Origin: Chiloscyllium plagiosum
Lineage: Eukaryota
DNA: 22,495 nt
Direction of reading: 5' to 3'
Assembly: GCF_004010195.1 (NCBI RefSeq)
Contig: NC_057717.1
Coordinates: forward strand, 104,568,003 to 104,590,497
The notes below the pieces were generated by a model. That model had not been told where the DNA came from, made no database searches, and worked only from the letters and a program-made list of their open reading frames with translations. Of this stretch, positions 1 through 22,495 are shown one piece after another. Position 1 is the first letter of the stretch. Each line of letters begins with the position of its first letter. Position numbers and translations under genes: made by a program.

Positions 1-269
1 AGCTGAGGAATTTGGGATTGTTGTCCTACTCAGCAATAGGATATTTTTAGTTTTATGACTTTAAAGGAAGATTTACATTTGGGACACTTTAAACTTACAA
101 AAGGAACGAAATAACAGACCCTTGTACAATTGTTATCACTTTCCTCAATCCATTCAAGTTTGCAAAAGGCTGTTCTCTCCCAGCCTTCACCAGTTACCTT
201 GTGACCCCCTTGACAGGCTCAGCTGTTCACTACCTCAGATATGTAGTGATTCTTAAACATGAACATAAA

Positions 270-680
270 CAGGAACATACAAATTAGAAAGAAGAGTAGG
301 TCATTCAGCTCCTCGATTCACCATTTGATAAAATCCCGGCTGATCTGTGTCTTCAACTCAGCTTTCCTGCTGACCCCGATATACTTAAATTCTTGATTAA
401 TAAGGGAATCTATCTACCTCTGCCTTAGTCGATATTCAATGACTCTGCCTCCACTGCTTTCTGGGATAGAGAGAGCTCCACAGACTCACGAAAACATTTC
501 TCCTCATCTCTGTATTAAATAGGAGATTCCTTATTTTTAAAACATGTCCTTTTGTTCTAGTGTCTCACAATGATAAACATCCTTTCAGGATCTACTCTGG
601 AAAGTGGCCTCACAATCTTCAATAAGATCACCTCTTATTTCTTTCAACTCCAGCCTAACCTATCCGACCTTTCCTTTATA
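270..680 (-). mobile_element. Degenerate CR1-type LINE 3' fragment
   Basis: Resembles the antisense CR1 tail (gagtaggtcattcagc...gactctgcctccactgctttctggg...tttctcctcatctctgt). Recognised by eye; boundaries approximate. Confidence 0.6.
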
Positions 681-819
681 AAATGGTCCGATGCGCACCT
701 CTGTCTGTTTAACTATGGGGAGCATCACTGCCAGATCTGATGCTGTCCTTGACTGGCCCTGGTATAAAGTAGTTCCCTGGTGGTGATGAGGGTCAGGCAA
801 ATGGCTTTCCCTTTAGACC

Positions 820-1310
820 TAAAGAACGTAAGAAATAGGAATGGACTATTCAGCCCTCAAGTCTGTATTGCCATTAATTAAGATTGTGGTTCACCTTAAG
901 TTGCACTGCCACTTTCCTGCCTGATCTCCATATCCCATGATTACTCCAAGTACAAAAGACCCGTTGATCTCACTGCTATCTTCTGGGTAGAGAATTCCAA
1001 AGATTCACAGTCCTTGAGTAAAGAAATTCCTCTTTATCCCAGTTTTAAAGATCAACCTCTCATCCTGTGACAATGCCCTGATTTCTAGATTCTCCAGCGG
1101 GTGGGAAGCATCTCTCCTTATCTCCTCAGATAAACATCTGTATCCTTCCTAGAGTTAGGACACCTAGGGTTAGGATACCCTAACCTTGACTCATCCTGTT
1201 CAAACTCTCCTCATAAGACAATTGTGTCATTCCCAGGATCCATCTAGTGAACCTTTTCTGCTCTAAGGTGAATTTATCTCTCCTTAGATGGGTGAACAAA
1301 ACTGTAGCCA
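820..1310 (-). mobile_element. Degenerate CR1-type LINE 3' fragment
   Basis: aagaacgtaagaaatagga...ctgggtagagaattccaaagattcaca...aagaaattcctc...ccaggatccatctagtgaacct follows the CR1 antisense pattern. Confidence 0.6.
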
Positions 1311-1324
1311 GTACAAAGACAGCA

Positions 1325-1424
1325 AAAAATGAAAACAGAAATAGCTGGGAAAGCTCAGCAGGTCTGGCAGCACCTGAGGAGAGAAATCAGAGTTGAGGTT
1401 TTGGGTCCAGTGACCCTTCCTCAG
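1325..1424 (-). mobile_element. Short interspersed repeat, Penelope-like terminal element family A, partial
   Basis: Nearly identical to 9810-9912 and related to 3282-3488 (aaacagaaa..gctgg..aagctcagcaggtctggcagca..gagagaaatcagagtt..gggtccagtgacccttcctcaga). Confidence 0.65.
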
Positions 1425-2351
1425 ATTTACAGCAAGACTTCCTTACTCTTGTATCCCAGCCTTCTGTCATTAAAGGCCAACATCTGACCTCTTGCCTTCC
1501 AGTTGCTAGCTGTACCTGCGTGCTAGCTTTCCATGTTTTGCTTACAAGGACACCCCAGTCTCTTTCTGTTGCCTGGAGGAGCAGTGGCCAGCTCTTGTAT
1601 GGAACGTGAAGCCATATCTTCCTGAATAATGGAGGATAACAATGTATTTGATTTGCTTGGCTTCCAGTAACCACTGGCTGGTTATAGGAAAATGAAACCC
1701 CTTTGGTTGTTTTAGGCAAGACACATTGGGTTTGCACGTTTTCCAGAAAAGTGTTAGAACTGTGGAACTCAACAAAAGAAATTCTAGAATTGTGTTAGAA
1801 ATGGAGCCTGGCATATTCAGTCGCCATCAGGAAGTGTTACAATTGACATTTAATACCCTCGTATTATGGTGGGCTGGGGCTAGCACAGGGAGTCCATGTC
1901 TTTCTGCTGTTCACTGGAAATGCACGTATGTGTGTGTGTATACACACACATGTGCTTGTCCACATGTGTCTAGGAGAAAAGGATGGCAGCCATTCCCAAG
2001 GTCAGGTGACCTGTGAACACTCATTGCTGACACTCAGTCCTAAGGAAAATCCACTTGGCTACAGTGTCCATCACCCAGAAAACTAACCAGGAAACATGTT
2101 GGGAAGAGAAGGGGGCTGGGGGATGGGAAGGGAAGGAAGAGCAGGATTGCTGTGAAGTGGAAGCTGTCAGACACTTGACAGTTCAGTTGTAGATCCTAAA
2201 AATCCATGTAGAGGGAGAGTTTGATAAAAAATGAAATCAGCCTGTAAGTGATTCTAATGTCAGTACAACTACTGCGTTTATATTCTGGCAACAGGCTCCA
2301 CAGCCATTTATTGCTGTGAAGTGGATTCATTTTCGCAAATGTCCAAAAGGT

Positions 2352-2667
2352 GGGCGATTTGGTGGCTCAGTGATTAGCACAGCACCAGGGATCCGGGTTT
2401 GATTCTAGCCTCGGGTGAATGTCTTGTGTGGAGTTTGCACATTCTCCCCGTGTCTGCGTGGGTTTCCTCCCACAGTCCTAAGATGTGCAAGTCAGGGTGA
2501 ACTGGCCTTGTAGTGTCCATGGATGTGCAAGCTAGGTGGGTTAGCCATGGGGAATGCAGGGTCACAGGGATGGGGTAAGGGGCTGTGTCTGGGTGCTCTT
2601 CAGAGGGTTGGTGCAGACTTAATGGGCCGAATGGCCTTTTCTGCATTGCAGGGATTTTATGATTCTA
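2352..2667 (+). mobile_element. HE1-type V-SINE (elasmobranch tRNA-derived SINE), near full length
   Basis: A-box-like TGGCTCAGTGA, B-box-like GGTTTGATTCT, V-domain tgtggagtttgcacattctccccgtgtctgcgtgggtttcctcc, and LINE-derived tail atgggccgaatggcc...gggattttatgattct. Confidence 0.85.
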
Positions 2668-3281
2668 GGGGATGGGTTCACATTCAAGACAGGGCAGCAA
2701 GTGTATGAAGCCAGCTATAATCTCTGAGACTTGGAGCCTGTTCCTTACCTTCTGCTGGTCTTCCTGAGACATGGATCCCCTGTTGTGGAGATTCAGACAC
2801 AGGCATCATTCCCACCTTGTTCAAATCCTACTCAGTCGAGTGGAACAAAAGTTTCTTCCATCTGCCTATTAGCATTTGAAGGCCAAAAGTGCACTTAGTT
2901 TGATGCCGTGAGTCTGCACTCTAGGAAATGTCATTGGGGCTTAATATAGGGAACTTCATGTTGTCTGTAACCAGAGTATCACAACCTTGGAGTGCTTGAT
3001 GCTAATGCTGAAAGGAGATTAAAAATTGGCCAAACATCCCTTACCTGAACAAAATAGCTTTTCTCTTAAAGAATAACCGTTGACCTTTGGAGGGAGAACT
3101 ATCATACAATCAGAATTAACTAGCATGGTTACTGTTATTAGTTTGCTCCCAGTGATCTGGTTCTCTGGGATTCAACACCGGTGACAAAGTGAAAGGCTAA
3201 AGTTAGGTGCAACAGCGATGAAGGGTCAGACCAATTGGTTTATGATGAATACTTGAAAAGATCAACTAAATATTAATAATG

Positions 3282-3488
3282 AACAAGAGCAGAAATTGCT
3301 GGATAAGCACAGCAGGTCTGGCAGCATCTCTGCAGAGAACTCACAGAAAGTCTTGAAGACCTTTGAAGAGTCACTTGAACCGAAATGTCAACTCTGATTT
3401 CTCTCCAGAGATGCTGCCAGACCCGCTCAGTTTATTCAGCCTTTTCTGTTTTTGTGTCTGCTTTACAGCATCTGCAGTAGTTTTGTTT
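3282..3488. mobile_element. Family A repeat in inverted (fold-back) arrangement
   Basis: Left arm cagaaattgctgga..cagcaggtctggcagcatctctgcagaga is the reverse complement of right arm tctctccagagatgctgccagacccgct..cagccttttctg. Confidence 0.65.
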
Positions 3489-4670
3489 TTTATTAAATAT
3501 TAATGATATTGTTTAAAAAGATTTATACTGTCACTGCCTAAATTCAGATACCTTTTATACAAAATAATCTAAAAAGTATTACTGAGCAAATGATCACTGA
3601 CTGCTGCACTGGCAGTAAAATTTGAGAACCAAAACTGGGGCGAACTGTGTGTTTGGGTAAGGAATTATATAAAGTGGGAGGTGAAATGATAAATCAACAT
3701 GTTTCTCATGGGAAGTGGTTTGGTCCAATGGAATTCTGCACAGTGGGAGCTGATGGTACACTGATTTCACTATAGTACTGAGGGCAGGGCTAAATGTTTA
3801 TCTATTTAGAAACTGTAGCCTTCCAATATACCGCAGCCCCATAGAACATGAGTTCTTTAGGAGCACAACTCAACTTGTTCCACCACCATCACAGAAGATC
3901 ACATTTTAGACTATCTACTGACACTCAGGATATTATGATCCAGTTACTGACAGAAAACTTGTTAAAGCCGCTGGAAAGAACATAATGCAGAAGAAACAGG
4001 CTCCAAAAAATTGCATAGTTGACTACTTCTCAAAGTAGAAAGAATAGCTTTAATACAACTTTTCCAAATGTCTAATTTCAAAAGTTGCTCCATTTACAAA
4101 CGGTAATTGGAACCCTAGAGTTCTGGGTAAAGAGTAAGGTGACAAGATGTGTGTCCTGCCTTGCTGAGTATGGGCTCTGGGGGTTGAAAGGGAATGTGTT
4201 AAATGGATTTGCAAATGTTCATTTTGGTTTGTCAGTGAGATCCATGGCCCTTCTAGTCATTTAGAGCTTCTCTCACACCTGTCAAAGGGTGTCCTAAAGT
4301 GATGACTGCACTTTTACCTGTAATCTGTGAGGAAAGATTTTTTTAGCTTAAAAAAAAGTAATTTAAAAAAAACATTTTTAGGGTAATGTGTATATATAGT
4401 TCTTATTTTGGCTTAACTATTGTCAATTTAAATTTAGTTTAAAGAGGGGGCAGATGGAAAAGATCATTCTACAAGTCCAGACTCATTGCTGATGGCTTGT
4501 TGTTGCTGTTGCCTTACCTGTATATCAGTGTCATCTGTATGTACTTTGTCTGTTCACCATTTTTAATATCATAGCAGTTTTGTACAAAATACTTGAGCAT
4601 AAATGTTTTTCCAGCTACTGCTTATATTGACCAATACTTGTAAAGTTTATGTATCACATAGCCTGTGACT

Positions 4671-4676
4671 ATTAAA
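4671..4676 (+). terminator. Candidate polyadenylation signal ATTAAA of an upstream + strand gene
   Basis: Ends an AT-rich, repeat-poor, UTR-like tract and is followed by the T-rich gtttttttccttctggtttagttattt. Confidence 0.4.
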
Positions 4677-4721
4677 AAGACAAGTTTTTTTCCTTCTGGT
4701 TTAGTTATTTACTGTCTCTGC

Positions 4722-5143
4722 TAGAACAAAGAAAATTTGCAGCCCAGTAATAGACCCTTTGGCCCTCCAAGCCTGAGCCGATCCAAATCCACTGTCTAAA
4801 CCTGTCGCCCAATTCCTAAGGATCTGTATCCCTCTGTTCCCCACCTACTCGTGCATTTAAATGAATTTACCGGGCCTGCCTCTACCACCTCTGCTGGCAA
4901 TGCGTTCCAAACGCCCACCACCCTCTGTGTAAAGTACTTGCCATGTATATCCCCCTTAAACTTTTCACCTCTCACCTCGAATGTGTGAACTCTCGTTATT
5001 GAATCCCTCACCCTGGGGAAAAAGCATATCGCTGCTCCTTGGATGCTGCCTGAACTGCTGTGCTCTTCCAGCACCACTAATCCAGAATCTGGTTTCCAGC
5101 ATCTGCAGTCATTGTTTTTATCTTTTCTATCTACCCTGTCTAT
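4722..5143 (-). mobile_element. CR1/HER1-type LINE 3' end (RT C-terminus) interrupted by a short repeat at ~5030-5120
   Basis: Translation HTFEVRGEKFKGDIHGKYFTQRVVGVWNALPAEVVEAG is the typical CR1 ORF2 end motif. Confidence 0.8.
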
Positions 5144-5319
5144 CAGTGACAGTCGGTGAATGAATGAACATTTGAATTAACTATACATTACAATCACTTC
5201 TGACACATTTCCATAATGGATAATACCTCTACTCAAATCGCAGTGAAAGATGTCAAATGTTTTATGGGATCTAATGACATGTGTTTTCCACAAATCTAAA
5301 CTTTATTCTTTGGATGTAT

Positions 5320-5517
5320 AAAGTCATCACAGTCCCAATGGAGAATAGATCTATTAGAAAGAGGCAGCCAGTAGTAGTTTAACCTGAGGGTCACTGCATA
5401 TCAGGGGTGAGGGGAGAGGTTGTGAAGGAGAGTCCTTCACGGTAAGCTCAGCTAGTGCAGGAATTGAACCCATGCAGTTGGAATAACACTGCTTCATAAA
5501 CCAGCCAACCAAACTAA
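5320..5517 (-). mobile_element. tRNA-derived SINE
   Basis: Minus-strand head ttagtttggttggctgg with B-box GGTTCAATTCC, then the body aaggactctcc...gaccctcaggttaaac...gggactgtgatgacttt. Confidence 0.6.
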
Positions 5518-6683
5518 TCAATTGTGAATAGGCTGCTGAATCACAAAACAGCAGGACATCCTCTGAAAGTATGACTTAGATGTTGGGGCAAACTTTTCAG
5601 ACCCTCGAGCGTGCTCCACCATTAAATAAAACTGAGGCTGATCAGACTGTGACCTCAACTCCACAAAGTCACTGGTCCCGGTCCCCCTCAGCTCACCAAC
5701 TCGATTTAAAATTGCTCACTCCCAGTTGCTGACCAAGGTGGGGACATGACACCAGGTGAGGGCAGGACATTGTCACCAAGTCTAACAGCCTACTGTCCCG
5801 GTTAGAGAATCGCTTTTAAAGGGTGTCAGTCAGACCTAAAACTCTGGCATCCGACATGGGGATAAAGGGACTGGATGAATAAAAATATCTGCTATTTATG
5901 ACAATTGTTTTGCTTCCCTCAAATCTCAACCAAACAATTGCACCTTTTATAGTAACTTCATGTTTAAACCCATGAGCCAAACTACAGAAAATATTATTGT
6001 GAAGGCAAACTAAGTGATTTTTTACATATGCTACAATGCATTCAAATGGCGCAAAGATAAAACACTCATTACTTGGACCCTACGCAGTGACATAAAATAT
6101 CCCACATCTGGGCTGTTTACTCTGATTGGCAGTTTACACAAAGTAAACGGAACTCACTCCCAAACTGGTGCATATCAATTGGATACCAGATAACATTGGA
6201 GGATGGTTGCTGCTTGTGGATTCATTGTCTTTAGGAAACAGCAGAGAAACCTGGCAAACAGAAGAGAGAGTAGGTGTATTCAGCCCATCAATACTGCTTC
6301 TTCTTTTGATGTGACCATAACTGTTCCTTTATCTTAATGCCATACTCCCACTCTCAACACCTTTGACCTGTAGAAATGTTTTTCTTTCTCAAACTTAAGT
6401 CAGTGACTTGCCCTCCACAGGTTTCTGTGACCCTGGCCCACTATAGGGAAGTAAAGCAATTGATAGAGCTGGAGCCGTCTCCAAGAAAAACTACATCTGC
6501 AGTCAAACAAACTGTCCAGGCAACAAGACCATAGCATTGAAGGGGAAGCTAGTGAGATACAGGAAGGAGAAATATGTTGATAGGGAGAGCAGATACTTGA
6601 GTGAGTCAGGAACGTTAGCACAGACCTCTCTGTCTTAAAAATACTACACAAGTGAGAGACAATGAATGATTTTAAATGCCTAT

Positions 6684-6689
6684 TTTATT
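6684..6689 (-). terminator. Candidate STX10 polyadenylation signal AATAAA, implying a ~1.7 kb 3' UTR
   Basis: AATAAA on the minus strand followed by CA dinucleotides and a GT/T-rich element (ttgtctctcacttgtgtagtattttt). A further AATAAA lies at 5307-5302. Confidence 0.45.
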
Positions 6690-7224
6690 ACAAATACCTT
6701 TGTACACAGTTTCAACTCTCTCCATTGTCATATTTTTAATAAGTGTTATGATGTAGTTATGAAACAATAACAGAAATATCCCTGCTGGAGTCACACACTC
6801 CTCCTAGCAATTATTTCCTCATCTTTAAACATCACCCCTTGCCCCAGTGAAAAAAAAAGTACCTTAAAGCATAAACACAGAAATGCATGTTCATTTACTT
6901 CTTTTGCAGAATTGGTTTCTGAACTCTGTACCACAAACAAGGTAACTGACAGCAGCCAGAAAGGAACAGAATTCATTGTATAAAGCACCTTTGAGATCTG
7001 TCCACATTGTCTGCAAAAGTTCTTCTTTTGTAACCTTATCAAAACTTATTTCTGGAATTTGCAATCCTCAAGTTGTGATGCCCCATGTGTATGAACTGGA
7101 AAGGGAATCAGCCTAGAAACATGCCAATCTCTGACTGCTAAGTCAAATCCAATCATTCATGAACTGGCACAGGGCAGCTGGTGCTGGGAATACTCACAGG
7201 ACTGGACATAGACACAACATATTC

Positions 7225-7480
7225 CATTCAACACCATCCAGGACAGAAGGAATCTATCTCTGCACTCCCTCTACGACTGGTACTTGAGGCTGTGATATGT
7301 ACCATCTGTAGGGTGTACTGAAGCAACTTGCTAAGATTATATTGACTGCATCTCACCACCTCCCCAGTGACTATTGACAATAAAAGTAGCAATATATAGC
7401 AATACACCAGCATGTCATATCCTGCTCAAAAACATACTCCCATCTTGACTGGGATATCCATTTCATTCTTGAAATGATCA
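7225..7480 (+). mobile_element. Old L2/CR1-group LINE fragment in the putative STX10 3' UTR
   Basis: Reverse-complement similarity to 12138-12455 (caccatccaggac...tgtaccatct...actgaagcaact...catcttgactggga). Confidence 0.45.
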
Positions 7481-7609
7481 AAATTTAAAATAACTATCAG
7501 AAATTCGAAATATTTTTTTTTAAAAATGGACAGAGCCTCCGTGACACTTTCAATCATGGTACAACCTTTGCTTCTGATCCATTCTAATAACAGAAGATCG
7601 CTCCTTTTA

Positions 7610-7720
7610 GATTGGACTGACAGATGGCACTTCTGACAGTGTCAGCCTGGATTGAGAGTTCAGGTCTCTGGACTGGGACTTGAATCCACAGTGTTCTGAT
7701 TGAGAACGGTAATGCACAAT
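7610..7720 (-). mobile_element. Degenerate DeuSINE/SacSINE1-like fragment
   Basis: tctgacagtgtcagcctggatt...tctctggactgggacttgaatccaca; B-box-like GATTCAAGTCC on the minus strand. Confidence 0.45.
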
Positions 7721-8333
7721 ACCTGCAAGGAAAAGGGGTTCTAGTGCATCTCCTTGAATAGGAGTCAGACTGCAGGAATTATTTCGCACGAGTTGCTGTG
7801 AGTTATTGAAACTCCAACCTATTGGGAAGACCTGCTGAAAGCCCAGGAAATCCCTCATCACCTCCATTCCTTAGCTGAAAGATTACTTTCCCCATTAATG
7901 CCACAATGCTTCATACATCTGACCTGACCACCGGTTCTGTCGGTCAGTGGGAGGAAGCCGAGTTTGCTGCTAACTGTTATTTATGAATAAGCCATGAAGC
8001 AGGTGGTTAGGTGTTGGTCCGATTCTAAAGTAACTACTTAGTGTCCACTATGAACGTTCTAATAGGTGCGAGCTAACCCATTACAAAAGTTAAAAAAAGG
8101 TATTTTACATTCCTCCCGCTCCACGTATGTGCGGCAGGTTCAGTCATATTGGATACAAACCAAGAGTTCCAAACAAAAGCCCTCAGAGCAAGTAGGTTTG
8201 GTCACTTGGAGAACTCTACCCCAGCTCCGGGGAACTTGCTGCTGCTGCTGCTGCCTCCCACCGTGAACACTCTAGTTGCTGACTGTCCCCGGCAACCCGA
8301 GTGGTTCACAGTTCAACGTCCCACGGTCAACGA

Positions 8334-8410
8334 TCAGAGGGTGAATAATAAGATGAGCACCATGATCAGGATGATGAGGAGAACGACAATGACACACCAT
8401 TGACGCCGAG
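8334..8410 (-). CDS. STX10: Syntaxin-10 last coding exon 8, tail-anchor transmembrane helix and stop
   Basis: Acceptor gttttggtag|CT. 77 nt encoding (A)RRQWCVIVVLLIILIMVLILLFTL followed by TGA at 8336-8334. Confidence 0.93.
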
Positions 8411-8888: not shown

Positions 8889-8983
8889 CACTGGTCATGT
8901 GAGAAACTTTGGCCAGTTTCTTCAATGTGCTGTCGAGCCGGGAGTGGGTGTTGTCCAATTCATGGGAAAATTCATCAAGCATC
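8889..8983 (-). CDS. STX10: Syntaxin-10 coding exon 7, C-terminal half of the SNARE motif
   Basis: Acceptor ttcccag|G. 95 nt encoding [31 protein letters not shown]. Donor G|GTAAGT. Confidence 0.93.
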
Positions 8984-11130: not shown

Positions 11131-11243
11131 GACGCCCATATCGGTACACGTTCATTGGGTTCCCGCCCCTCTCGTCTGACAGTTCAGCATCCTCTCATAC
11201 ATCCCTCTGACAGCTCGCTCTGCACTGAAACCTTCCTTACATA

Positions 11244-11812
11244 CCCTCAGAGGGCACGGCACCCCCTCTCCGCCCAAACTCAGAGGGCAGGGCACCCCCT
11301 CTCCGCCCAAACTCAGAGGGCAGGGCACCCCCTCTCCGCCCAAACTCAGAGGGCAGGGCACGCCCTCCCCACACACCCTCGGAGGGCAGGGCACCCCCTC
11401 TCCGCCCACCCTCAGAGGGCACGGCACCCCCTCCCTATCCATCCTCGGAGGGCACGGCACCCCCTCCCTGTCCACCCTCGGAGGGCAGGGCACCCCCTCC
11501 CCGTCCACCCTCGGAGGGCACGGCACCCCCTCCCCGTCCACCCTCGGAGGGCACGGCACCCCCTCCCCGCCCACCCTCAGAGGGCACGGGACCCCCTCCC
11601 TACCCATGCTCGGAGGGCACGGCACCCCCTCCCTACCCACCCTCGGAGGGCACAGCACCCCCTCCTTACCCACCCTCAGTAGACACGGCACCCCTCCTTA
11701 CGCACTCTCAGTGGGCACAGCACTCCCTACCTATCTACCCTCTGAGGGCACAGCACCCCCTTTTCCCATCCTCGGAGGGTGTGGCACCCCCTCCCGACCG
11801 ATCCTCAGAGTG
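11244..11812. repeat. 33-bp GC-rich minisatellite, ~17 units
   Basis: Unit CCCTCGGAGGGCACGGCACCCCCTCCCCGTCCA; gives the 11-aa periodicity in the overlapping ORFs. Confidence 0.95.
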
Positions 11813-11900: not shown

Positions 11901-12007
11901 ACTGCCTGTTCCTCCAACTCGTCGCCTATTTGTGTTGACATGCTCTTTAGGACCGCACTGCTTCCCAGGACCAGATCCAGTTGGTCATCTTGCTGTTCCA
12001 TTATCAG
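11901..12007 (-). CDS. STX10: Syntaxin-10 coding exon 6, N-terminal half of the Qc-SNARE motif including the 0-layer Gln
   Basis: Acceptor tctgtgcag|CTG. 107 nt encoding [35 protein letters not shown](V). Donor GT|GTAAGT. Confidence 0.92.
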
Positions 12008-12868: not shown

Positions 12869-13134
12869 CTGTAGCAGTGGAAAAGGATAAGTTGGACTCT
12901 CTTTACATTATCTTTATTCACGTTATTCTAAGTTAATGTACTATGCTCCTCTGTACAGAAACAGCACACAGTTTCCACTGTATTTTATACTGAATACACA
13001 CGAAAATAAAGGATATTCTAAAAGGATTTTCCAAACGGAATGTGTTCAAAACATATTGCTCACATACAGCTCTCACAGGATGGCAGATAGTTCAGTTTCA
13101 ACCTCAGTTAGTACACTACACACACTTACAACTC

Positions 13135-14408: not shown

Positions 14409-14525
14409 CTGCTGCTGGGCCCTCTGCTCCTCAACGTACTGGGAGTTGACATTCTCCAGCTCCTGGTCTAGGCGCCTGTATCTGTCCATGGGCTTGTGCT
14501 GATCCTCAATGCCCCCAAGCAGACT
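14409..14525 (-). CDS. STX10: Syntaxin-10 coding exon 5, linker
   Basis: Acceptor ttgttgtag|AGT. 117 nt encoding SLLGGIEDQHKPMDRYRRLDQELENVNSQYVEEQRAQQQ. Donor CAG|GTAAGT. Translated by hand; not in the ORF track. Confidence 0.9.
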
Positions 14526-16053: not shown

Positions 16054-16132
16054 CACTGACAGAGTAAGAGCAGAGGGTGCTGCGGAGCATGAGACTCAAG
16101 ACAGAGAAAGTGAAATTCAAACAGCCACCCAC

Positions 16133-16195
16133 CTGTCGGTTCCTCCTTTCTCCAAACGCAACAGCAGCAGGACTTGTAATGTGATCTTTCATTTC
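16133..16195 (-). CDS. STX10: Syntaxin-10 coding exon 4
   Basis: Acceptor ctctctag|GAA. 63 nt encoding EMKDHITSPAAVAFGERRNRQ, close to the recalled human STX10 EMKDHMVSPTAVAFLERNNRE. Donor CAG|GTGGGT. Confidence 0.92.
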
Positions 16196-16643
16196 CTAGA
16201 GAGGTGAGGAAAAGCTTGTTATAAACACCGAGCATCCCTAGCAATAATTCTAATTCAAGAGTCTTGCAGTTTATCGAGCCAGAGAGCTGGCAACAAGACT
16301 GAAATAGTAAGTTCAATTCCTAATGGTTCATGCAGTGTAGGTTTAGGTGTAGCATGTACCTTACTTCCACATGTTGTTCCTATTGGTTTTGACCGTGATC
16401 CTCAGCCCACTGTGACTGACTAACCTGACAACGTTCACGATCTCGAGCTGAAAGGGGTGAGCTACTTTCAAGGACAGGAGAGCATGAGACAACAGGACCA
16501 CTACACTGCTCCCAAATCAAGCTTCAGCCTCATGGTAACACTATTAACTCACTGACTGAAAGGCATTGGCACCCAGATTATTATTGAAGGATAATCAGAG
16601 AAATACTGTGACCTGGTGTGTGTTCAGCAGTGCATGTCGCTAC

Positions 16644-16738
16644 CTTCACAGTTTGTCTCATTCTGAGGACAAATGCTTTCCTCTCTTGCAGTTCTGCAGT
16701 CTCGATCTTGAACTTCCGAGGATTTGATTCCACAATGC
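16644..16738 (-). CDS. STX10: Syntaxin-10 coding exon 3
   Basis: Preceded by TTCCTTAAC-tatcgcaa-AC (U12 acceptor). 95 nt encoding (S)IVESNPRKFKIETAELQERKAFVLRMRQTVK. Donor AAG|GTAGCG. Confidence 0.92.
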
Positions 16739-16997
16739 GTTTGCGATAGTTAAGGAACAAGGATGCAATTAAAGGTAAGAGCAACAGTCAGGAAACCATG
16801 AGAAGGGCAATTCACTCAGCACAGAGTAAACATGTTGCCAATTGGAAAATGCAAATTCAATTAAATTACAATAAAATGGGATAAGATAAAACAAACCAAA
16901 TACAAAACATGAATTTGGCACTATTTTAAAGCACAATTTAATAAAAACATCACAGCAGTTACTGAAATCCTGAAGTCTGGTCTTGCAAGGTTAATTA

Positions 16998-17042
16998 AAC
17001 CCTTGAAAACCATTGGCAAACCTTTGAAAACCATTGGCAAAA
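16998..17042. repeat. 21-bp tandem duplication
   Basis: aaacccttgaaaaccattggc / aaacctttgaaaaccattggc. Confidence 0.9.
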
Positions 17043-17084
17043 CAAAAATCAAAGATGAGACCAGACAAATTTTGTTGCACAATT

Positions 17085-17285
17085 CAAGATTTATCAAGAC
17101 CTGTAAAAACGGTAGAAGCTGATTCCATCAATACCTTTGAGAAGGATTTGCTCCGATAGGCAAGGATGGAGAAAACAGAAAGTTCCAGACAGAATGTGGG
17201 GATGTTGGACAAAATGAGAGTGCTTTTTGAAAGAGCCAGCAGAGCACAATGGGCTGAACAGCCTCCTGTACTGATTCCATGAACC
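17085..17285 (+). mobile_element. Degenerate CR1-type LINE 3' end inside the U12 intron
   Basis: ggtagaagctgattccatcaatacctt...gaaagagccagcagagcacaatgggctgaacagcctcct. Confidence 0.55.
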
Positions 17286-17946
17286 AACTCAGCACAGAAC
17301 GGGCTAACACCTGGGAACGTTTCTGAGCAACAGGACATATAGGACCAACATTGGAGAGTGTTGTACTATGTGAAACAGAACCTCCTGTTGCAGGAGATAC
17401 TTTTGACCCTTCAGAGTCACTTTAATCTCTCAGCCACACACATAACATGAAATGTATTTGACATTGACCCACATATGGAAGAATTATAGAAACATACACG
17501 TGATCCTTTCAGCTTCTAGTTAGCCCGGGGTGTTCACTTTTTGACTACTTCCCTGGTGTTAATTTTCAGAAATTTACTGCTTTTCTCTTGATCACCTCAC
17601 ACCCAACTTGCTGAGCCAGCTCCTGCTCCCAGTTTATTCACTTCACAGAAACATTGACCCACAATCCCACACCCTGACCAGCAGCAGTTGGCAGGATATC
17701 TCTGTATATCCCTTCGCCTCAAACTCAAGGGGTAACTGCTGCCTCTGTGGGGGATGGGTGAACACGGCATTGGGAGAGAGGGTGGTGTGGGGGGGTTACA
17801 TTTTTCCCTGCATTTTCCCAGGTGATAAAATACCAACACGGCTCAGACAAACCAGAGCCTTGGCCCATCGGCATTCAATCTAACCTTAGCATGGGGTGAG
17901 ACTCAGAAGGGGAGCAGGAGGCTGTGCTCCTGCCACTGGAGGATAT

Positions 17947-18116
17947 TGATTGTCTCATCCAGATCCTCGAGGTCCCACTCGATACTGCGCAGGCTGTTCC
18001 GGAGCTCATTAGTCGTCCAGTCATATTCCTCTCTGCTGACGGCCTGGGTGTCCTGTAGTAACTCACCCCATCGCTGGTACAGTCCCCGGGCTGTGTTCAC
18101 TGCCTTCTGAACCTCT
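17947..18116 (-). CDS. STX10: Syntaxin-10 (STX6/STX10 family) coding exon 2, Habc domain
   Basis: Acceptor tttcattgcag|A. 170 nt encoding [65 protein letters not shown] is STX10-like. Ends at the U12 donor ATATCCTCC. Confidence 0.93.
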
Positions 18117-18794
18117 CTGCAATGAAAGAAAGACATCTCAGGAGCAGCTCATCTTGGGGCGGGGGAAGGTACCACCTTATACATCCTTTTAAAAGTGTAC
18201 TCACTGCTGTGTTGCCAATCTGAGCACAGCAAGATCCCACAAGCTGCAATGTTCCTTAGTTGCTGTTTGAGGGGATAATGGGGAACACACCAGCTTTTCT
18301 TCCACAGTGCCAGGCAGACGGGACCTCTGTTTACAAACAGGACCACTCTCCCACCCCACCTTGCCACAGCACTGGGGCATCTCTTCAGAGCTGACCCTGG
18401 GGTCAGATTCACACCCAGCCCAGGCTCCGCGATAGGCCTGGAACCCACATCAATAGCAGCCGGCAGCAAGGGTTCAGTGGGAAGCTCCTTTCACACTCTT
18501 TACCCCTAACTCAACCCCCCAACTCATTCTCCACACCCTCCTCTACACTTCCCCCAGACACCCCTCCCACCCCCCAGCACCTCCCCTCCCATCACTTATT
18601 CCCTCTCTACTACCGTTGACTCAACCCCCCACTACGAACACTACCTCCTCCAAAGCCACCCCAGTCTCGGGGAAGGGGTGGTGAGTGTACGAGGTACAGT
18701 CCCAGCCTGGTAACATGCAGACTGCAGAGATTCGGCACTAACAAACCCCAAACCCTTTTGCTACCCTTCTCCTCAAAGGCCAGTAAGGGGGCAG

Positions 18795-19525
18795 TGGGAC
18801 AATATCCTGACTGGGATCCCCTCACAGTGAAGGGGGGTGGGGGACAGTGTCCTGACTGGGATACCCTCACAGTGAGGGGTGGGGGACAGTGTCCTGACTG
18901 AGATCCCCTCACAGTGAAGGGGGGTGTGGGGACAGTGTCCTGACTGGGATCCCCTCACAGTGAGGTGGGGGTTGGGGGACAGTATCCTGACTGAGATCCC
19001 CTCACAGTGAAGGGGGGTAGGGGGATAGTGTCCTGACTGGGACCCCCTCACAGTGAGGAGGGGTGGGTGGGACAATGTCCTGACTGGGATCGCCTCACAG
19101 TGAGGGGGGTGTGGGGATCAGTGTCCTGACTGGGAGGACTGTGTCCTGATTGGGATCGCTCACAGTGAGTGGGGGGGCGTGTGGGGACAGTGTCCTGACT
19201 GGGATCCCCTCACAGTGAGGGGTGGGGGACAATGTCCTGACTGAAACGCCCTCACAGTGAGGGGGGGTGTGGGGAGACAGTGTCCTGACTGGGACCCCCT
19301 CACAGTGAAGGGGGGTGGGGGGACAGTGTCCTGACTGGGATCCCCTCACAGTGAGGGGAGGATTGGGGGACTGTGTCCTGATTGGGATCCCTCACAGTGA
19401 GGGGGGTGTTGTGGGGACAGTGTCCTGACTGAGACCCCCTCACAGTGAGGGGACAGTGGCCTGACTGAGACCGCCTCACAGTGAGGGGACAGTGTCCTGA
19501 CTGAGATCCCCTCACAGTGAGGGGA
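18795..19525. repeat. Palindrome-rich minisatellite, ~16 units of ~36-46 bp
   Basis: Core GGACAGTGTCCTGACTGGGATCCCCTCACAGTGA followed by a variable G-rich spacer. Confidence 0.95.
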
Positions 19526-19636: not shown

Positions 19637-22495
19637 TGTCTGCGTGGCGTTTGCACATTCTCCCCGTGTCTGTGTGGGGTTTGCACATTCTCCCCGTGTC
19701 TGCGTGGCGTTTGCACATTCTCCCCGTGACAGTGTGGCGTTTGCACATTCTCCCCGTGTCGGTGTGGGGTTTGTACATTCTCCCCATGTCTGTGTGGCGT
19801 TTGCACATTCTCCCCATGTCTGTGCGGCGTTTGCACATTCTCCCCGTGTCTGTGTGGGGTTTGCACATTCTCCCCGTGTCTGCGTGGCGTTTGCACATTC
19901 TCCCCGTGTCTGTGTGGGAGTTGCACATTCTCCCCGTGTCTGTGTGGGGTTTGTACACTCTCCCCGTGTCTGTGTGGGGTGTGTACATTCTCCCCGTGTC
20001 TGTGTGGGGTGTGTACATTCTCCCCCCTATCTGTGTGGGGTGTGTACATTCTCCCCGTGTGTGTGTGGGGTGTGTACATTCTCCCCGTGTCTGTGTGGGG
20101 TGTGTACATTCTCCCCGTGTCTGTGTGGAGTTTGTACACTCTCCCCGTGTCTGTGTGGGGTGTGTACATTCTCCCCCTGTCTGTGTGGGGTGTGTACACT
20201 CTCCCCGTGTCTGTGTGGGGTGTGTACATTCTCCCCGTGTCTGTGTGGGGTGTGTACATTCTCCCCCCTGTTGTGTGGGGTGTGTACATTCTCCCCCCTG
20301 TCTGTGTGCGGTGTGTACATTCTCCCCGTGTCTGTGTGAGGTTTGTACGTTCTCCCCGTGTCTGTGTGGGGTGTGTACACTCCCCCCGTGTCTGTGTGGG
20401 GTGTGTACACTCCCCCCGTGTCTGTGTGGGGTGTGTACACTCCCCCCGTGTCTGTGTGGGGTGTGTACACTCCCCCCGTGTCTGTGTGGGGTGTGTACAC
20501 TCCCCCCGTGTCTGTGTGGGGTGTGTACACTCCCCCCGTGTCTGTGTGGGGTGTGTACACTCCCCCCGTGTCTGTGTGGGGTGTGTACACTCCCCCCGTG
20601 TCTGTGTGGGGTGTGTACACTCCCCCCGTGTCTGTGTGGGGTGTGTACACTCCCCCCGTGTCTGTGTGGGGTGTGTACACTCCCCCCGTGTCTGTGTGGG
20701 GTGTGTACACTCCCCCCGTGTCTGTGTGGGTGTGTACATTCTCCCAGTGTCTGTGTGGGGTGTGTACACTCTCCCCGTGTCTGTGTGGGGTGTGTACATT
20801 CTCCCCCCTATCTGTGTGGGGTGTGTACATTCCTCCCGTGTCTGTGTGGGGTGTGTACATTCTCCCCGTGTCTGTGTGGGGTGTGTACACTCTCCCCGTG
20901 TCTGTGTGGGGTGTTGACATTCTCCCCGTGTCTGGGTGGGGTGTGTACATTCTCCCCGTGTCTGGGTGGGGTGTGTACACTCTCCCCGTGTCTGTGTGGG
21001 GTGTGCACACTCTCCCCCTGTCTGTGTGGGGTATGTACACTCTCCCCATGTCTGTGTGGGGTGTGCACATTCTCCCCGTGTCTGTGTGGGGTGTGTACAT
21101 TCTCCCCGTGTCTGTGTGGGGTGTGCACACTCTCCCCGTGTCTGTGTGGGGTGTGCACATTCTCCCCGTGTCTGGGTGGGGTGTGTACACTCTCCCCGTG
21201 TCTGTGTGGGGTGTGTACACTCTCCCCCTGTCTGTGTGGGGTTTGCACATTCTCCCCGTGTCTGTGTGGGGTGTGTACATTCTCCCCGTGTCTGTGTGGG
21301 GTGTGCACATTCTCCCCGTGTCTGTGTGGCGCTTGCACATTCTCCCCGTGTCTGTGTGGGGTGTGTACACTCTCCCCGTGTCTGTGTGGGGTGTGTACAC
21401 TCTCCCCCGTGTCTGTGTGGGGTGTGTACACTCTCCCCGTGGCTGTGTGGGTTTGTACATTCTCATTGTGTCTGGGTGGGGTGTGCAGATTCTCCCCGTG
21501 TCTGTGTGGGGTGTGCACATTCTCCCCGTGTCTGTGTGGGGTGTGTACATTCTCCCCGTGTCTGTGTGGGGTGTGTACATTCTCCTGTGTCTGTGTGGGG
21601 TGTGTGTACATTCTCCCAGTGTCTGTGTGGGGTGTGCACATTCTCCCCGTGTCTGTGTGGCGCTTGCACATTCTCCCCGTGTCTGTGTGGCGCTTGCACA
21701 TTCTCCCCGTGTCTGTGTGGCGCTTGCACATTCTCCCCGTGTCTGTGTGGCGCTTGCACATTCTCCCCGTGTCTGTGTGGCGCTTGCACATTCTCCCCGT
21801 GTCTGTGTGGGGTGTGCACATTCTCCCCGTGTCTGTGTGGCGCTTGCACATTCTCCCCGTGTCTGTGTGGCGCTTGCACATTCTCCCCGTGTCTGTGTGG
21901 CGCTTGCACATTCTCCCCGTGTCTGTGTGGCGCTTGCACATTCTCCCCGTGTCTGTGTGGCGCTTGCACATTCTCCCCGTGTCTGTGTGGCGCTTGCACA
22001 TTCTCCCCGTGTCTGTGTGGCGCTTGCACATTCTCCCCGTGTCTGTGTGGCGCTTGCACATTCTCCCCGTGTCTGTGTGGCGCTTGCACATTCTCCCCGT
22101 GTCTGTGTGGCGCTTGCACATTCTCCCCGTGTCTGTGTGGCGCTTGCACATTCTCCCCGTGTCTGTGTGGCGCTTGCACATTCTCCCCGTGTCTGTGTGG
22201 CGCTTGCACATTCTCCCCGTGTCTGTGTGGCGCTTGCACATTCTCCCCGTGTCTGTGTGGCGCTTGCACATTCTCCCCGTGTCTGTGTGGCGCTTGCACA
22301 TTCTCCCCGTGTCTGTGTGGCGCTTGCACATTCTCCCCGTGTCTGTGTGGCGCTTGCACATTCTCCCCGTGTCTGTGTGGCGCTTGCACATTCTCCCCGT
22401 GTCTGTGTGGCGCTTGCACATTCTCCCCGTGTCTGTGTGGCGCTTGCACATTCTCCCCGTGTCTGTGTGGGGTGTGCACATTCTCCCCGTGTCTG
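19637..22495 (+). repeat. 30-bp minisatellite (~95 units, runs off the window end) derived from the HE1 V-domain
   Basis: Unit TGTCTGTGTGG(GGTG/CGCT/GGTT)TG(C/T)ACATTCTCCCCG; the single-copy equivalent is at 2420-2462. Confidence 0.95.

Follow-up and report, generated by a model that had tools for sequence, protein, structure and literature searches.

The analyzed DNA, referred to here as the window, is a 22.5-kb stretch (22,495 nucleotides) of the genome of the bamboo shark Chiloscyllium plagiosum. Exons 2-8 of a syntaxin-6/10 gene were found on its minus strand, running from 18116 to 8334; the exon and intron coordinates below all refer to this strand. Joined through one AT-AC intron and five GT-AG introns, these exons give a 240-residue open frame with a hydrophobic anchor at its end. 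Exon 2 (17947-18116, 170 nt) encodes the initial portion of the STX6/10/61 N-terminal domain (PF09177 positions 9-64, E = 1.5e-16), and exon 3 (16644-16738, 95 nt) matches positions 66-96 of the same domain (E = 2.3e-6, slightly below the curated cut-off). Both exons are also present in assembled contigs. Since they match consecutive parts of PF09177, the intron that separates them, intron 2, splits the N-terminal domain. Exon 4 (16133-16195, 63 nt) follows the 448-nt GT-AG intron 3 and was placed by sequence and by a 448-nt joint seen in all three of the assembled runs described below. Exon 5 (14409-14525, 117 nt) was placed by identity to a RefSeq protein of the same species (P0003, XP_043550936.1) and by loose contig ends at 16133 that run into it. 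Identity to the same record located exon 6 (11901-12007, 107 nt), where the SNARE motif starts, and exon 7 (8889-8983, 95 nt), which holds the remainder of that motif. The coding part of exon 8 (8334-8410), comprising the hydrophobic C-terminal anchor and the stop codon, was recognized by its match to the C terminus of the homologue record P0002.

The spliced product is 98% identical over 240 columns to P0002, which has both PF09177 and PF05739. The three features by which membership of the syntaxin 6/10 (Qc-SNARE) family was judged, namely the PF09177 N-terminal domain, the SNARE motif, and the C-terminal anchor, are all present. Exons 2-7 agree with XP_043550936.1 at 215 of 215 residues, the exon 2/3 junction included, and their product differs at three positions from a Chiloscyllium punctatum record. 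No exon 1 was found in the 22.5-kb window, and contig ends at 18117 run on into sequence that is absent from the window at that place.

The RefSeq record, annotated as "syntaxin-6-like isoform X1," has the same AT-AC junction as our model, but in place of exon 8 it ends with exactly the read-through of intron 7 and lacks a membrane anchor. Intron 7 is open in the exon 7 frame for ∼95 codons (8888-8608), and the record could stem from a soluble form of the protein or be an artefact of intron retention. At the exon 7/intron 7 point, a different ending is also seen in a chimaera STX6 record (P0056). The gene is also accompanied by repeats. Upstream of exon 2 lie a minisatellite of ∼46-48-nt units (18796-19525) and a tandem array (19637-22495) with a 30-nt unit, ∼95 copies, and 94% matches, which has long stop-free frames on both strands, continues past the end of the window, and probably sits inside intron 1. 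A further minisatellite (11243-11795, 33-nt unit, ∼17 copies) is found in intron 6.

Intron 2 is a phase 1 AT-AC intron of 1208 nt (17946-16739). It opens with the U12 5′ splice site ATATCCTCC (17946-17938). The donor criterion was ATATCCT(T) at +1 to +8, the consensus ATATCCTT being that given in PMC2831892, and seven of the first eight bases agree with it, the sole departure being at +8. The putative U12 branch-point sequence TTCCTTAAC (16757-16749) conforms to the branch criterion TCCTTAAC and ends 10 nt from the exon. Its candidate branch adenosines, 16751 and 16750, stand at -13 and -12, within the 11-13-nt optimum given for the distance from branch point to 3′ end in U12 introns (PMC3584512). 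The intron closes with the dinucleotide AC (16740-16739), and inspection of the 75 nt upstream of this AC revealed no AG. There is no pyrimidine tract between the branch site and the AC: four of the eight bases at -10 to -3 are pyrimidines, as against five to eight of eight in the five GT-AG introns, a weak contrast in small numbers. Donor, branch motif, and terminal AC are thus all found exactly where the initial annotation had placed them.

Four sequencing runs were aligned to positions 16100-18200: three assembled runs from three studies under three organism labels (X1, X2, and X6) and one run of raw reads (X20). The junction 17947/16738 is present in contigs of all three assembled runs, with exactly 1208 nt skipped, no letter of ambiguity, and a shorter side of 96 (X1), 32 (X2), and 96 (X6) letters; the RNA nature of these runs is a guess, their contigs lose rare variants, and the support consists of contigs rather than junction counts. 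The 448-nt intron 3 is likewise skipped in all three. No further joint at the exon 2/3 splice sites is listed in the contigs of X1, X2, and X6. X20, a single-cell run, gave no reads on the aligned interval from ∼6% of the run. Pieces of the introns were also assembled: in X1 those of intron 2 have depths of 6 and 3.7 and that of intron 3 a depth of 2.6, compared with 91.9 for the spliced contig, and in X2 there is an intron 3 piece of depth 5.9 and none for intron 2, contig depth being no measure of retention. A reading of these depths as intron retention was rejected, and no inference was drawn from them.

The same intron has known counterparts. Human STX10, human STX6, and mouse Stx6 appear as minor-intron genes in the supplement of PMC6717393, as the initial annotation had stated for the two human genes. 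The listed donors, ATATCCTGG in human STX10, ATATCCTTT in human STX6, and ATATCCTTC in mouse Stx6, follow the same exon bases, and the introns measure 134, 2593, and 3698 nt, respectively. The human STX10 intron (chr19:13149594-13149727), which belongs to the same gene according to the tree favored below, lies near the transcript 5′ end and shares the TC-purine/ATATCCT context with the shark intron; primate STX10 records run into it at the same residue as the shark junction. It is, however, far shorter than the shark intron, its donor continues with GG where that of the shark continues with CC, and its branch site CCCTTGAC has a lower score in PMC6717393, in contrast to the perfect shark motif. 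In human STX6 and mouse Stx6 the TCA/ATATCCT context is identical to that of the shark (PMC6717393), and phase and position are the same as judged from read-through in STX6 records. These two genes are paralogous to the shark gene, and their introns differ from that of the shark in length and branch sequence (PMC6717393).

Three lines of evidence support the assignment of intron 2 to the U12-type AT-AC class made in the initial annotation: its sequence, the spliced joint found in three assemblies, and the human and mouse orthologues already catalogued. Intron 1 of Drosophila Syx6 (CG7736) is also AT-AC and is given as U12-type in both the fly gene and its human STX6 orthologue in Table 2 of PMC2831892. 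Fly Syx6 represents the pre-duplication state as a single gene and has two introns in total, and the orthology of the intron position is as stated in that paper, for STX6. As fly Syx6 and human STX6 share the intron, it would date from the bilaterian ancestor or earlier. The proposal that the intron predates the STX6/STX10 duplication is therefore supported and understates its age.

Human STX10, which acts in endosome-to-Golgi transport and is missing from mouse and rat (PMC2213607), is credited in PMC4066798 with a U12 intron at the transcript 5′ end; in human cells this intron decays slowly and is stabilized by exosome knock-down (PMC4066798). STX10 is also treated as a minor-intron gene in PMC13135317 and PMC8767276. 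The main texts of PMC11347168 and PMC13550442 do not mention STX6 or STX10, and the searched supplements of PMC4066798 and PMC2831892 hold no entry for either gene. No paper on the shark version of the intron was found in the open-access literature, and multi-species intron databases may list it. The intron itself is already known: it is catalogued in human, mouse, and fly counterparts, and the RefSeq model splices the shark AT-AC junction correctly.

A homologue search returned 961 matches, and the best 120 of the 961 were examined at the junction. In 79 of these 120 records the junction is collinear, in two it is otherwise, and in the remaining 39 the protein reads through into the intron via an AT-type donor. 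Read-through of this kind can be recognized as the tripeptide [N/D/Y]-I-[L/P], the translation expected of a model that runs through a phase 1 donor beginning AT-ATC-C, where the exon supplies the first base and Ser, Gly, and Cys junction codons turn into Asn, Asp, and Tyr; the 39 records comprise 18 N-I-L, 18 D-I-L, two Y-I-L, and one N-I-P. It occurs in STX10-named records of primates, ungulates, turtles, and a lizard and in STX6-named records of rodents, a snake, a coelacanth, a chimaera, a bowfin, and teleosts. An AT-type donor therefore occupies this position in both paralogues. No GT-type read-through was found in the best 120 of the 961, which is weak evidence in that mis-modelling is less frequent for GT-AG introns. 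Some of the unnamed read-through records may be true intron-retaining transcripts rather than prediction errors.

The expectation that GT-AG-only gene predictors would mis-model this junction is borne out by these 39 records, a catshark model among them. The Scyliorhinus record GCB77746.1 enters the donor and returns to exon 3 through the branch-site region, and its read-through residues resemble the translation of the window in that frame. Ten of the read-through records are from teleosts (P0032, P0043, P0050, P0085, P0087, P0090, P0092, P0103, P0114, and P0121), four of them from cyprinid-type fishes and nine with the STX6 signature. Fish syntaxin-6 orthologues are said in PMC2831892 to have switched from AT-AC to GT-AG, the fishes being zebrafish, Fugu, and Tetraodon. 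Judged from their sequences, the ten teleost records would narrow this statement without contradicting it, none of them being from those three species and their intron 3′ ends being unreadable in protein. It may be that only certain lineages, or only the other paralogue, switched to GT-AG.

Taken singly, the U12 motifs carry little weight. RTATCCTY occurs three times in the 22.5-kb window, with 2.23 occurrences expected and 42 of 100 shuffles reaching three; TTCCTTRAC occurs once, with 0.51 expected and 37 of 100 shuffles equaling that. Each motif by itself is within chance for a window of this size. RTATCCTY matches at 1140-1147 on the plus strand and 13009-13016 on the minus strand were rejected as donors, as they are at chance level and fall at no exon end of the gene model. 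The signals of intron 2 go beyond chance because donor, branch motif, and AC coincide with a junction that homology and assembled transcripts define independently; the joint probability at the exact junction is ∼4e-9 by a rough independent-base estimate. It could still be argued that the true splice uses nearby GT-AG sites and that the U12 motifs, each at chance frequency, are incidental. We tested 176 GT-AG pairs around the junction (16 donors × 11 acceptors), and 13 of them are in frame and free of stops, so that the earlier claim that no such pair restores the frame was too strong. Against this reading, the 13 pairs yield 38-72 residues compared with 88 via the AT-AC junction, each costs the conserved domain 16 residues or more, and the conserved junction shared by most of the examined homologue records is not restored by any. 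The AT-AC joint is, moreover, the only one listed at these sites in the assembled contigs. Splicing at GT-AG sites is accordingly exceedingly improbable.

The contigs themselves might derive from a processed pseudogene in DNA rather than from spliced RNA, a reading left room by the guessed nature of X1, X2, and X6. We regard this, too, as a negligible prospect: the joined contigs match the window at 99% or more in X1 and X2, have a far greater depth than the pieces of intron, and come from runs with three different organism labels, and a retrocopy would itself stem from an mRNA spliced at the same junction. A few U2-type AT-AC introns are known, and they provide the precedent for supposing that intron 2, for all its AT-AC ends, is removed by the major (U2) spliceosome. 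Its donor is, however, ATATCCT and not the U1-type ATRAGT, its perfect U12 branch motif lies at the U12 optimum distance, and its 3′ end has no adjoining pyrimidine tract. The human and mouse orthologues are, in addition, classed as minor introns in PMC6717393. Removal by the major spliceosome is thus very unlikely, and splicing of intron 2 as a U12-type AT-AC intron is the reading adopted here.

The identity of the gene as STX10 or STX6 was addressed with a tree of 40 rows, consisting of the window and 39 of the 120 homologue records picked for length and spread. The window falls within an 11-row clade of sharks and rays (support 100/99), and a separate 14-row STX6 clade (100/99) includes other cartilaginous-fish proteins (P0021 and P0056). 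Heptranchias has one protein in each of the two clades. When the tree is rooted on a hemichordate row together with two unnamed rows, the window clade joins bony-vertebrate STX10 at 94/87. An AU test in which the shark clade was held together with STX6 did not reject that arrangement (p = 0.166). The label "shark STX10" of the initial annotation thus stands as regards the shark, given the complete match to the C. plagiosum RefSeq protein, and as regards STX10 is favored by the tree and not proven in view of the AU result; we consider the gene very probably STX10 rather than STX6. The claim of an AT-AC intron is independent of this label.

The gene might instead belong to the STX6 side, as a second copy in cartilaginous fishes, and not be an STX10 orthologue, a matter that concerns the name only. 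Besides the AU result, many (most) of the shark records are named "syntaxin-6-like," and the junction codon of the window is Ser, as in STX6 records, and not Gly. Gly is found at the junction in the remaining sharks and rays of the window clade, however, as in STX10 records. A distinct cartilaginous-fish gene is already present in the STX6 clade, Heptranchias has both genes, and the hemichordate-rooted tree places the window clade with bony-vertebrate STX10. A position on the STX6 side would also require an extra duplication and losses. It is for these reasons improbable, and STX10 is retained as the preferred name. No neighboring genes were recognized for an assessment of synteny: 48 further frames of the window, drawn mostly from the 60 listed for 1-8300, were scanned against Pfam and gave one weak match below the cut-off.

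The junction codon (17947-17949) is Ser in both Chiloscyllium records and Gly in the other sharks and rays of the clade, and the last base of exon 2 has therefore changed in the genus. Position -1 of the U12 donor is variable across vertebrates, where A, G, and T are found. Public records name the proteins of this one shark and ray clade (P0002-P0015) inconsistently, as "syntaxin-6-like" or "syntaxin-10."

We conclude that the locus is almost certainly intron 2 of the bamboo-shark syntaxin-10 gene and an ancient U12-type AT-AC intron. By the pathway set out in PMC3584512, the U11/U12 di-snRNP would bind the donor ATATCCT and the branch site TTCCTTAAC as a pair, and U4atac/U6atac.U5 would then join to complete the spliceosome. 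The adenosine 12-13 nt upstream of the AC would attack the donor, and the AC would be picked according to how far it lies from the branch site, a pyrimidine tract being unnecessary (PMC3584512). The window agrees with every sequence requirement of this pathway. Once the 1208 nt are removed, exons 2 and 3 are connected in phase 1 and the conserved N-terminal domain is whole again. Translation of the window with the intron retained reaches a stop after 14 intron-encoded codons, so failed splicing would cost the protein its SNARE motif and anchor and would probably trigger decay of the transcript. The intron would descend from the one Syx6 gene of bilaterians, with its position unchanged in both STX6 and STX10.

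A more speculative view is that sharks keep the ancestral strong form of the intron, long and with a perfect branch site, that slow splicing together with the early stop on retention amounts to a conserved control of STX10 dose, and that the fish syntaxin-6 switch to GT-AG may hold only in some lineages. We consider this combination doubtful. The finding extends the record of an intron already catalogued in human, mouse, and fly to a cartilaginous fish and goes little beyond annotation. About one-third of the examined homologue records (those 39 of the best 120 of 961) run into the intron, and STX6/STX10 protein records therefore need care at this junction. Such read-through is at the same time a cheap readout of donor subtype from protein records alone. 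The presence of the intron in a shark agrees with the known strong conservation of vertebrate U12 introns.
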